A stretch of 13,898 nt of DNA from a virus, in IMG/VR virus record IMGVR_UViG_3300018080_003280; one strand, given 5' to 3'. Under the pieces are notes generated by a model, which saw nothing but the letters and a program-made list of their open reading frames with translations, had not been told where the DNA came from and did no database searches. The position numbers were made by a program, and so were the translations under genes. Below, piece after piece: positions 6,750-12,736 of the stretch (the stretch's first letter is position 1; the number at the start of each line of letters is the position of its first letter).

Positions 6750-6986
6750 TTACCCATCGGTTACCACCCCATTCGGTTTGGTGATTTCCAGGAGATAGCT
6801 GCCAGTAGCCAGAGGCGGCGGACCCCAATCGAGGTCCTCATCAATCTCGGCTCCGGTTCGTTTGCAAAATTTCCAGGAGCCACATATGATGCGTTTGTCG
6901 GTTACGCGTGTGACGCGTAACTTCATTGGGACTTGGCCACCGAGCATTCTGGTGACCTCGTCGCCGACCCTGATGCGAGTATGCAT
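6750..6986 (-). CDS. hypothetical small protein (78 aa, or 58 aa from ATG 6926)
   Basis: ATG at 6986 with AAGGAG at 6-nt spacing. The alternative ATG at 6926 forms an ATGA overlap with the upstream gene stop. Confidence 0.45.
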   Translation of the reverse strand: MHTRIRVGDEVTRMLGGQVPMKLRVTRVTDKRIICGSWKFCKRTGAEIDEDLDWGPPPLATGSYLLEITKPNGVVTDG

Positions 6987-8523: not shown

Positions 8524-8855
8524 TTCGGTACTCGCTCCTCGGGTACTTCGTGGTCATGACATTCCGTTTTCATGGCGTCGGGTGCCAATTTGTTTGCCAC
8601 CAACAAGCAACGGCCGCACATCCACGTGTCTTCGGGCACGACGTCGGCGAACTGTGCCTCGGCCGCCGTCTTGTCGGGGCCGTCATCCATGTCCTCGATC
8701 TGCTTGGCAATCTCGTCGAGGGCGAGTACGCCGCGGGCGATGATGTCTTGTTTGTACGCCAGCTCGACAGCGTGGTCCTCGCCGCACCAGTTGCACCGGA
8801 GCGTCTCGGTCTTCTCGCCCGGCAGGTGGATGTTGATGTTCAGTTTTTCACTCAT
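8520..8855 (-). CDS. zinc-ribbon protein, 111 aa
   Basis: CNWCG ... CGRC pairs. ATGA overlaps at both ends. Confidence 0.6.
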   Translation of the reverse strand: MSEKLNINIHLPGEKTETLRCNWCGEDHAVELAYKQDIIARGVLALDEIAKQIEDMDDGPDKTAAEAQFADVVPEDTWMCGRCLLVANKLAPDAMKTECHDHEVPEERVPK

Positions 8856-9391
8856 ATCGGTAGCTCTCCCAGTTTACGCGGTTTGTAGGGTACGAATGCC
8901 GAGAACATGCAGTTCGGCAGGCACAGCAGCTTCTCCGTGTCCATGGCTTCCATCGCCTTCCGCGCGAAGCCGTACTGCGAGGCATCCACAGGCGGGTCGC
9001 CGAGCAGATTGAACTGCTTCCAGATGCCACGTTCCGATCGTACGGCAGGCACACGGACACGCATACCAGGTATGCATTTGCCGTCGCTCCGGATCTCTGC
9101 ATTCGGCTCGGGCGTGCAGACACAGTCGAAACCCTCTTCGGTGCCCCAGAAGTAGGACACGCGGCCGAGGATGCACCACTTCTCCTTGTCCTGCATGACG
9201 TGCAGGTGTCCATGGTAGAGATAGAACGTGTGGCTGGCGATTCGGAGCTCGTATTCGTACGGGAGGAAAACACCGACATGCTCGCGGATCTCCTCTGTCT
9301 CTTCTTCGCTCGCACGGAGGTCCTCTGGTGAGAGGATAGCTGGCGATGCCGCAGCTGCAGCGGAAACCTTCAGCATGTCACGACGATTCAT
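8852..9391 (-). CDS. Tat-signal exported protein, 179 aa, His-rich motif
   Basis: Internal ATG at 9391 with AAGGAAG at 6-nt spacing. N-terminus MNRRDMLKVSAAAAASPAILS fits the twin-arginine consensus (RRxxLK, Ala-rich h-region). Mature part has YLYHGHLH and 6 Cys. Confidence 0.6.
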   Translation of the reverse strand: MNRRDMLKVSAAAAASPAILSPEDLRASEEETEEIREHVGVFLPYEYELRIASHTFYLYHGHLHVMQDKEKWCILGRVSYFWGTEEGFDCVCTPEPNAEIRSDGKCIPGMRVRVPAVRSERGIWKQFNLLGDPPVDASQYGFARKAMEAMDTEKLLCLPNCMFSAFVPYKPRKLGELPI

Positions 9392-9713
9392 TGTCTTCTT
9401 CCTTTTCTGGTTTGGCTTCGATGATACGCAGTACCACCTTCGGCTCCACAACGGTATCAAAATCAGCCGTACGCAGTGCGAGCAATACTTCAAACGCGAG
9501 AGACGGATAGAGTCTGCATGCGTCATTCCGCTCGGGCACCCAGCGGGCATCTGCGATATTTTTGTTAGCAGGCCAGCCAGGCCACGCCGACAAGAATGTG
9601 TCGGGCGTGCCATACGGGTTAGCCAAGCACGGAGGATCTCCGGGCTTTCTAATGACATGGTCTCTGGCACGGGCAGCATTGCCAAAGGTCTCCACGGTCG
9701 CTTTCAAACTCAT
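9378..9713 (-). CDS. hypothetical protein, 110 aa, acidic C-terminal tail
   Basis: Internal ATG at 9713 with GAGGAG at 5-nt spacing. The 3' end (EKEEDNESS) overlaps the start of the Tat-protein gene by 14 nt. Confidence 0.55.
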   Translation of the reverse strand: MSLKATVETFGNAARARDHVIRKPGDPPCLANPYGTPDTFLSAWPGWPANKNIADARWVPERNDACRLYPSLAFEVLLALRTADFDTVVEPKVVLRIIEAKPEKEEDNESS

Positions 9714-9970
9714 AGTCTCTCCTCTCTTGTGTATTTTGCCGTCCCGTGTTACACAAAACACGGACGCATAAAACCGGGCCAGGCTACGTCCGCGGTCTCT
9801 TTCTTTTGACAACGCAATACCTCGTTGCACGACTCAGCTACCCCTGCTGCCGTAGGATACGACGGAGGAATGAGAGATCGATACCAGGAAGCAAGCGCTT
9901 TTGCTTTGTTCACCTTTGCAGTTAGGACTTTCGACAAGTCGGTTAAAAGTTACTAAAACGGGACGGCAAG

Positions 9971-10043
9971 GGTGACCGGCGGAAATCGAATCCGCAACCT
10001 CCGGAGTCACATTCCGGTGCTCTTCCAGTTGAGCTACGGCCAC
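9971..10043 (-). tRNA. tRNA-His (anticodon GUG)
   Basis: Acceptor GTGGCCG/CGGTCAC, U8 A9, D stem GCTC/GAGC, anticodon arm CCGGA-ATGTGAC-TCCGG, T arm GCGGA-TTCGATT-TCCGC, discriminator C. No encoded CCA and no encoded G-1. Confidence 0.7.
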
Positions 10044-10045
10044 AG

Positions 10046-10118
10046 CAGGCACCCGAGGAATCGAACCTCGCCAGGCGGTTTTGGAGACCGCTTCGCCAGC
10101 CTTGGAACATTGGCACCT
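10046..10118 (-). tRNA. tRNA-Trp (anticodon CCA), weak D stem
   Basis: Acceptor AGGTGCC/GGTGCCT (two G-U pairs), anticodon arm GCGGT-CTCCAAA-ACCGC, T arm CGAGG-TTCGATT-CCTCG. The D stem pairs only with wobbles. Separated from tRNA-His by 2 nt. Confidence 0.5.
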
Positions 10119-10384: not shown

Positions 10385-10414
10385 AGCTATACCTCCACGG
10401 TTAAATGTATGCAG

Positions 10415-10487
10415 AGACAAGGGTGGGATTTGAACCCACGACCCGCGGATTAACAGTCCGCTGCGCTGACCACTGAGCTACCCTGTC
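10415..10487 (-). tRNA. tRNA-Asn (anticodon GUU)
   Basis: Acceptor GACAGGG/CCTTGTC, anticodon arm GCGGA-CTGTTAA-TCCGC, T arm GTGGG-TTCAAAT-CCCAC. One mismatch in the D stem. No CCA. Confidence 0.7.
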
Positions 10488-11672: not shown

Positions 11673-11687
11673 AGCATCCTCCTCAAA

Positions 11688-11757
11688 AGGCCCGCCAGGA
11701 TTCGAACCTGAGATATAGGAACCAAAATCCTATGTGTTACCGTTACACCACAGGCCT
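11688..11757 (-). tRNA. tRNA-Gln (anticodon UUG)
   Basis: Acceptor AGGCCTG/CGGGCCT, D stem GTGT/ACAC, anticodon arm TAGGA-TTTTGGT-TCCTA, T arm with TTCGAAT loop. No CCA. Confidence 0.7.
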
Positions 11758-12236: not shown

Positions 12237-12663
12237 GCCTCTCCGATGGTATAGAGTCGTGTCAACAGCAGGTCGCTCAGCGGCAGTCCGGTGCCTATAC
12301 CTCACACACCGTCCGTACACCGCAACGTCAGAAGCCCTTCGCTTTCAGGACCCTATGTACTCCCTATCCGGTCGCTGAACTGCAGCGCGCGGCCCGGACT
12401 CAGTTTTCAGTTCTGGGCTGGTGCAGCTTGTAGCACCACATCCAACGTCGTACGCACCAAGTCAATGGTTTTTGCGCTGGGGTGTCCTCGCCGCCAGCGA
12501 ATGCACGCTCAAACGGACACCCGTACCTCTCCCGGCAACAGTCGCTGGACTCGACAGGAGATCGTAATTCACTAAGTTGTGCTTTCCCGTTCAAAGTACC
12601 CAGGGGAAAGCTTTCGGTCGAGGGTACAGACTTACTTAAACAACATACTGTGAACCGCGCAAG

Positions 12664-12736
12664 TGACCCGTGGGGGAATCGAACCCACCCCTGCTGGATC
12701 GAAAATCCAGTGTCCTAACCGATAGACGAACGGGCC
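12664..12736 (-). tRNA. tRNA-Glu (anticodon UUC)
   Basis: Acceptor GGCCCGT/ACGGGTC, D stem GTCT/GGAC with GG in the loop, anticodon arm CTGGA-TTTTCGA-TCCAG, T loop TTCGATT. One U-C mismatch in the T stem. No CCA. Confidence 0.6.

Follow-up and report, generated by a model that had tools for sequence, protein, structure and literature searches.

Does a phage gene encode a protein that crosses the membrane of the infected cell through the host's twin-arginine translocase (Tat), and is the exported part a metal protein that is matured by an enzyme encoded beside it? These questions are raised by one minus-strand gene in a stretch of viral DNA of 13,898 nucleotides (IMG/VR record IMGVR_UViG_3300018080_003280), which is called the window here. 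The window is clearly phage DNA: a single strand carries five tRNA genes, ThyX, a DenV-type glycosylase, DUF7873 and numerous small ORFs. The features discussed are collected in Table 1.

Table 1. Coordinates of the Tat-leader gene, its elements and its neighbours in the window
Feature	Position	Strand	Remarks
Tat-leader gene, CDS	8852..9391	-	179-aa product, stop codon included (ATG 9391-9389, TGA 8854-8852, 179 codons); orphan family, three known members
Predicted signal peptide, residues 1-27	9311..9391	-	PF10518, TIGR01409, uncharged stretch, -3/-1 site
Twin-arginine codons, residues 3-4	9380..9385	-	CGT CGT; relatives AGA CGA and CGA CGT
Shine-Dalgarno sequence	9398..9404	-	AAGGAAG, 6 nt 5' of the Tat-leader ATG
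Upstream gene, 111 aa	9378..9713	-	Last 14 nt overlap the Tat-leader start; stop 9380-9378
Zinc-ribbon-like protein, 111 aa	8520..8855	-	CxxC...CxxC (+ECHDH), acidic; ATGA overlap with the Tat-leader gene
Radical SAM enzyme, 295 aa	7636..8523	-	CNAKCPFC; Pfam Radical_SAM 1.5e-9; ATGA overlap with the zinc-ribbon gene
tRNA-His (GTG)	9970-10043	-	Amid small ORFs, operon strand
tRNA-Trp (CCA)	10045-10118	-	Amid small ORFs, operon strand
tRNA-Asn (GTT)	10414-10487	-	Amid small ORFs, operon strand
tRNA-Gln (TTG)	11687-11757	-	Amid small ORFs, operon strand
tRNA-Glu (TTC)	12663-12736	-	Amid small ORFs, operon strand

Start codon and leader

A Tat leader is meaningful only at a true N-terminus, and the start codon that the sequence-only reading had chosen is right. 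The AAGGAAG at a 6-nt spacing, independent gene calls and stops upstream of the gene in its relatives all agree on it. GGGAGGG and CAGGAGA are found at the same position in the relatives' genes, and the 179-aa product has been called identically on two public contigs, one of them a 19.5-kb metagenome contig. In both relatives, P0003 and the L012 protein, stops lie upstream with no in-frame start farther 5', so that their ORF cannot begin farther 5' and the RR motif is truly N-terminal. The concern that the true start of the window gene might lie elsewhere is therefore answered by the gene calls and the relatives, which leave the motif N-terminal. The start had been placed inside the acidic tail codons of the upstream gene, and it is seen there, within the terminal KEEDNESS and its stop codon. 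The upstream gene itself is not present in the relatives and has no family matches. The earlier translation was also accurate, as the 179-aa product contains both the YLYHGHLH run (residues 57-64) and six Cys residues (73, 90, 92, 106, 157 and 161).

The translated product opens with MNRRDMLKVSAAAAASPAILSPEDLRASEEETEE, and its N-terminus reads MNRRDMLKVSAAAAASPAILSPEDLRA, followed by SEEE. The leader can be divided into an n-region (MNRRDMLK, net charge +2), an Ala-rich, weakly hydrophobic h-region of 12-14 residues (VSAAAAASPAIL) and a c-region (SPEDLRA), with a signal peptidase I cut predicted after Ala27, between LRA and SEE. The twin-arginine motif was defined as Z-R-R-x-hydrophobic-hydrophobic, with the consensus S/T-R-R-x-F-L-K and a positive n-region at the true N-terminus, and N-R-R-D-M-L-K at residues 2-8 fits it. 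TATFIND-type criteria ask that the motif be followed by an h-region that is uncharged, only moderately hydrophobic and some 13 or more residues long. The window leader has 14 such uncharged residues (mean Kyte-Doolittle value 1.26) and the relatives have 13 and 16, all within this description. The window leader and both relatives also agree with the small-residue rule for the -3/-1 positions, Leu at -3 being tolerated but suboptimal.

Profile scores for the window protein, taken alone, are borderline. The Pfam TAT_signal model (PF10518) gives the whole protein 22.7 bits, which equals the gathering score (E = 8.7e-5, residues 1-18), and the isolated leader 26.7 bits; with the NCBIfam model TIGR01409 the protein reaches 16.3 bits, the cut-off being 16.7. 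P0003 clearly exceeds the cut-offs of both curated models (25.1 bits for PF10518 and 18.9 bits for TIGR01409), and the L012 member matches neither. A simple rule that combines the RR motif with the uncharged stretch picked out one spurious ORF among the 338 ATG-initiated ORFs of the fetched loci, and it was also passed by both relatives and by three cellular Tat proteins.

The three-member family and the route of export

The comparative evidence for a Tat leader is stronger than the HMM scores. Searches of about 5.8 billion proteins, together with the viral and metagenome scans, yield three members of the family: the window protein, P0003 (169 aa, 29% identity to the window protein) and the product of L012:507-1031 (175 aa, 25% identity). 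P0003 is found on many large viral contigs. The L012 member came to light only because its gene immediately precedes a radical SAM gene of 58% identity. The contigs of the relatives are viral, 78-220 kb in length, and carry a GpA-type terminase. A word-indexed search of the 5.8 billion proteins returned only the query when a single sequence was used and only the query and P0003 when a profile was used, and full HMMER against 1.84 billion representatives returned the query and one low-complexity match. Searching 50,697 phage records with each of the three members by tblastn gave no match, nor did mature-domain profile scans of GTDB genomes and IMG/VR. The metagenome scan yielded one known relative, on the L020 contig, together with unrelated cellular Tat proteins whose match is restricted to the leader.

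The three proteins are nonetheless homologous beyond their leaders. The mature domains alone give significant BLASTP E values (1.8e-5, 3.4e-4 and 1.5e-16) and z-scores of 7.4 to 23.7 against shuffled sequences. The leader is the best-conserved part of the family: between members, 9-14 of the first 20 residues (45-70%) are identical, compared with 22-29% of the remainder. All three members start with M-N-R-R-[DE]-M-[LM]-[KQ], have an n-region of net charge +2, an uncharged Ala-rich stretch of 13-16 residues (mean Kyte-Doolittle value 0.94-1.26) and a helix-breaking Pro in the leader, and have -3/-1 sites at residues 27, 25 and 23 (LRA-S, AEA-K and LQA-S, the hyphen marking the cut). The codons for the Arg-Arg pair differ synonymously among the members, which indicates that the pair is kept at the protein level. 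Unusually fast evolution of the Tat-leader protein was considered and ruled out, as its 29% identity resembles the 30-34% of several neighbouring orthologues.

The leader is very near the common Tat consensus, because cellular PIG-L-family deacetylases share the MNRRDMLKVSA start with the window protein and because a pattern set that includes MNRR[DE]M[LM][KQ] has at least 599 matching stretches in metagenome contigs. What is new is an orphan phage protein family of very narrow distribution; the kind of signal is already known. The cellular PIG-L/LmbE deacetylases with Tat leaders at L017-L019 (4001-4750, plus strand) adjoin a gene for an alpha-N-acetylglucosaminidase-like lipoprotein.

The N-terminal Tat-type signal that the sequence-only reading had proposed for this phage gene is thus supported, with HMM cut-offs reached or nearly reached and the leader conserved in the relatives. 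The N-terminus is very likely a real signal peptide, and its most likely route is Tat. Two other readings of the leader have to be weighed. The signal may instead direct export by Sec, or serve as an uncleaved N-terminal membrane anchor, with the Arg pair providing mere n-region charge. The window leader just reaches the PF10518 score and falls 0.4 bits short on TIGR01409, the L012 leader matches neither model, and the L-R-A cleavage context is suboptimal, Leu at -3 being weaker than Ala. However, RR-x-M-L-K fits five of the six positions of R-R-x-F-L-K, the Arg pair is invariant despite the synonymous changes, and two members have an Arg in the c-region. The h-region is also short and Ala-rich, with a mean Kyte-Doolittle value of about 1.0-1.3, which is typical of Tat signals and not of Sec signals or anchors. 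A Sec or anchor function is considered unlikely on these grounds.

It is less likely still that there is no export signal at all, and that this is a cytoplasmic phage protein in which Arg-Arg and an Ala-rich N-terminus have come together by chance. Models of short motifs are prone to false positives and the HMM scores are borderline, the protein has no recognisable extracytoplasmic domain, and the support for export comes from the sequence. Against a chance origin, the n/h/c architecture, the Pro and the -3/-1 site are kept in three proteins that are otherwise 22-29% identical, and the chance rate of the simple rule is about 1 in 330 ORFs.

The mature domain and its neighbours

The metal site proposed by the sequence-only reading does not survive the comparison with relatives. 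None of the six Cys residues of the window protein is conserved in the family; P0003 lacks Cys and has just one His. Only the window protein has the H-G-H-x-H run, and neither Tyr57 nor His60, His62 and His64 of the Y-x-Y-H-G-H-x-H run is conserved. The residues that are invariant in all three members are I35, E37, H38, K69, G76, E85, P94, P108, R118, P133, P134, L155, R172 and K173, the first three of which form an I-x-E-H motif just past the leader with H38 as the sole invariant His. The six Cys residues and the His-rich run are thus, on sequence comparison, lineage-specific, and a cofactor- or metal-binding Tat substrate was rejected since the mature domain lacks a conserved Cys/His/Tyr ligand set. 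The impression of intradiol-dioxygenase-type ligand spacing loses its basis together with the metal site. There is no Pfam match at E <= 10, and an intradiol dioxygenase was set aside because Dioxygenase_C is not matched and the candidates for the two Tyr and two His ligands are not conserved. The pI of the mature domain varies widely, being 5.6 for the window protein and about 9 for the relatives, so a single ligand shared by the family is not obvious.

No credible match to the mature domain was found in Pfam, NCBIfam, PHROGs, PADLOC or PDB sequences. Weak matches to YkuD, Ral, DrmMI, cystatin-like proteins and an AI-designed TIM barrel were dropped because of low scores or missing key residues. 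For L,D-transpeptidase (YkuD), P0003 scores 15.7 bits against 23.4 and has no Cys for the H...GC(I/V)R motif, and the GKCIPGMR of the window protein sits in an insertion that is absent from the relatives. A sulfatase with an anaerobic sulfatase-maturating partner was also rejected: the C/S-x-P/A-x-R motif is absent, C92-T-P-E-P being unfitting and unconserved, and on the enzyme side Radical_SAM is the only Pfam match, with no SPASM domain. The structure prediction that had been proposed as a check was carried out with AlphaFold2, but the shallow alignment gave a pLDDT of only 32, which is too poor to assign a fold.

Could the neighbouring radical SAM enzyme nevertheless modify this protein? 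The Tat-leader, zinc-ribbon and radical SAM genes are linked in the window by ATGA overlaps, so the coupling of the radical SAM gene that had been described stands as far as an ATGA-linked operon is concerned; direct adjacency does not, as the zinc-ribbon gene lies between. The radical SAM gene is directly 3' of the Tat-leader gene in the relatives, and the zinc-ribbon orthologue there (L005 12965-13318, 45% identity) is about 2.5 kb farther downstream. The zinc-ribbon-like protein has no family match. More than 1075 proteins of about 280-295 aa, mostly on viral-looking contigs, make up the family of the radical SAM enzyme. The enzyme contains the CxxxCxxC motif, and its AlphaFold model has a pLDDT of 91. 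The nearest folds found by Foldseek are MoaA, SuiB, SkfB and viperin (about 16% identity, probability 1.0, TM 0.58-0.68), and the window enzyme shares with them a partial TIM-barrel radical SAM core and CxxxCxxC. It scores 47 bits against a cut-off of 284 for MoaA and 36 against 180 for viperin, and is well under every curated family cut-off. Beyond CxxxCxxC, only C155 and C258 are near-invariant in the family, and no set of auxiliary-cluster Cys residues is conserved. No sequence relative of the family, which carries the automatic JGI name 'MoaA', was found in the PDB.

Members of this enzyme family lie at L013, L015, L021, L022 and L026-L039. At about 20 other loci of the family, the upstream neighbours vary and include Methyltransf_21, Ro60/TROVE, isochorismatase-like and ligase-like proteins and small unknowns. 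At L021, a gene for a Ro60/TROVE protein with a vWA domain lies beside the radical SAM homologue. When all ORFs within 2.5 kb of these loci were searched (hmmsearch, E <= 1), none encoded a relative of the Tat-leader protein.

A longer block of orthologues includes the radical SAM gene. Within it, identity is highest for a small basic ORF (75%), followed by the radical SAM enzyme (60%) and the zinc-ribbon protein (45%); other genes reach 44%, 34%, 33% and 32%, DUF7873 30% and the Tat-leader protein 29%. Collinearity of the three phages extends over the entire block, so the adjacency of the genes represents inherited synteny and is weak evidence of functional coupling.

It has been proposed that the Tat-leader protein is metal- or cofactor-bearing, or modified, and is matured in the cytoplasm by the radical SAM enzyme, hence the use of Tat. 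Each of the three genes lies beside, or one gene away from, a radical SAM gene of one and the same subclade (58-60% identity), and there is translational coupling; SuiB and SkfB, both peptide maturases, are among the top Foldseek matches; and in the HXS system radical SAM enzymes mature an exported effector (PMC13128918). But MoaA and viperin, which act on nucleotides, match equally well as the peptide maturases, and the enzyme has no SPASM match and just two further near-invariant Cys residues. In the Tat-leader proteins no Cys and, among the His residues, only H38 is conserved, with P0003 lacking Cys altogether. Another gene is inserted between the two in the window, and the other loci of this large enzyme family have varied neighbours and no Tat-leader relative. 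The adjacency in a block that is collinear in three phages is inherited, not independently selected. Maturation by the radical SAM enzyme, as the sequence-only reading had suggested, is therefore very improbable given the size of the enzyme family, the partnerless loci and the collinear block. The enzyme is an independent, widespread, uncharacterised viral family, and neither a metal cofactor nor radical SAM modification is needed to explain the data.

Other genes of the window offer observations of their own. The 76-aa, very basic ORF at 6527-6757 (minus strand; MGNRRRKTGGKRRRRVRCTLCTDVRWLGN...) is 75% identical to its counterpart in L009, more than any other gene of the block. The long form of the DUF7873 ORF, which starts at a TTG, overlaps this gene, so the true start of DUF7873 is probably a Met near 6597. 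ThyX (Thy1, 1.2e-48) adjoins the DenV-type pyrimidine-dimer DNA glycosylase (Pyr_excise, 2.6e-27) at 598-1661 (minus strand). The genes to which ThyX is 49-57% identical come from many phyla, which leaves it without a host signal, and the similarity of DUF7873 and of the terminase is likewise scattered over many phyla. A haloarchaeal virus with Tat as the default route was ruled out, as the window proteins are not acid-shifted (most have a pI of 5.5-9); the use of Tat would thus not simply be the haloarchaeal default. An 867-aa ORF at 2508-5108 (minus strand) has major-vault-protein domains (MVP_shoulder 1.8e-26, Vault_3 and SPFH/Band_7). Unannotated ORFs of LR756500/501/503 (uncultured 'huge phage', 462-735 kb) match it at 38% identity along about 95% of its length, and the L009 relative lacks it at the equivalent position. 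A phage-encoded shell protein of the vault type may outrank the Tat-leader finding in interest.

Proposed export and known systems

On balance, the Tat-leader gene probably encodes a phage accessory protein that is exported by the host's twin-arginine translocase. In the infected cell, and assuming that the host has a Tat system, TatBC would recognise N-R-R-D-M-L-K, and the protein would cross the cytoplasmic membrane folded, powered by the proton-motive force. Cleavage by signal peptidase I after Ala27 would then release a domain of about 152 residues (17.6 kDa), probably beta-rich, into the periplasm or cell-wall compartment. It is possible, with low confidence, that this domain works at the envelope to the advantage of the phage. 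Candidate roles that may be guessed at are superinfection exclusion, the masking or modification of a receptor, and the timing of lysis. An accessory role at the envelope is favoured because the gene lies amid small early-type, nucleotide-metabolism and tRNA genes, and not structural genes, and because it is confined to one phage lineage.

If export is true, the window would offer a clear example of a large, lytic-type phage that uses the folded-protein route of its host for an accessory protein, and phage proteins that act at the envelope would gain a family of very narrow distribution. In practical terms the value is modest: the leader lies near the Tat consensus, and superinfection exclusion or envelope remodelling is a candidate role of the mature domain. 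The negative results are also useful, as they identify the Cys residues and His-rich run as lineage-specific and the radical SAM enzyme as an independent and widespread viral family. A literature search returned no paper centred on a Tat-exported phage protein, a result that does not in itself establish rarity.

The closest known counterparts of the leader are bacterial Tat signals (PF10518; TIGR01409), for example those of the periplasmic PIG-L deacetylases at L017-L019. These have the same n/h/c anatomy, identical first 11 residues, an Ala-rich h-region and a small-residue cleavage site. However, the phage leader scores at threshold and is carried by an orphan domain for which no relative was found outside three phage lineages.

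A second comparison is with the HXS anti-phage system, which consists of the effector HxsA, the radical SAM enzymes HxsB and HxsC and the small protein HxsD (PMC13128918). A 2026 study reported that the radical SAM enzymes mature HxsA, a signal-peptide-bearing periplasmic protein that acts against incoming phage DNA (PMC13128918). The window resembles this system in grouping a signal-peptide protein, a radical SAM enzyme and a small protein. Unlike HXS, which is bacterial, the window element is phage-encoded and has one radical SAM enzyme, not two, and no member of the family has His-x-Ser repeats or a peptidoglycan-binding domain. The window enzyme scores 24.4 against 267.9 on the HxsC model (TIGR03977) and 12.9 against 370 on the HxsB model (TIGR03978). 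Membership of the HXS system was rejected, as all of its defining features are absent from the locus. It is a long shot, the least probable of the readings considered, that the Tat-leader, radical SAM and zinc-ribbon proteins form a phage counterpart of the HXS logic, in which a modified periplasmic effector acts as a superinfection-exclusion gate. Modification of the effector in the cytoplasm would explain the need for a folded-protein route, and the co-occurrence of the three genes in all three known phages and the invariance of H38 in I-x-E-H are in line with such a reading.

The Tat-exported accessory protein favoured here may also have analogues among exported phage accessory proteins. 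Sp/Imm of phage T4 and Llp of phage T5 are superinfection-exclusion proteins. The T4 antiholin RI has a cleavable signal peptide (PMC8385771). These proteins use Sec, SAR or lipoprotein signals and have no sequence similarity to the window protein, so that the analogy would be a functional one: like the window protein they are small, fast-evolving and non-structural, they are bound for the envelope, and they are encoded outside the structural module.
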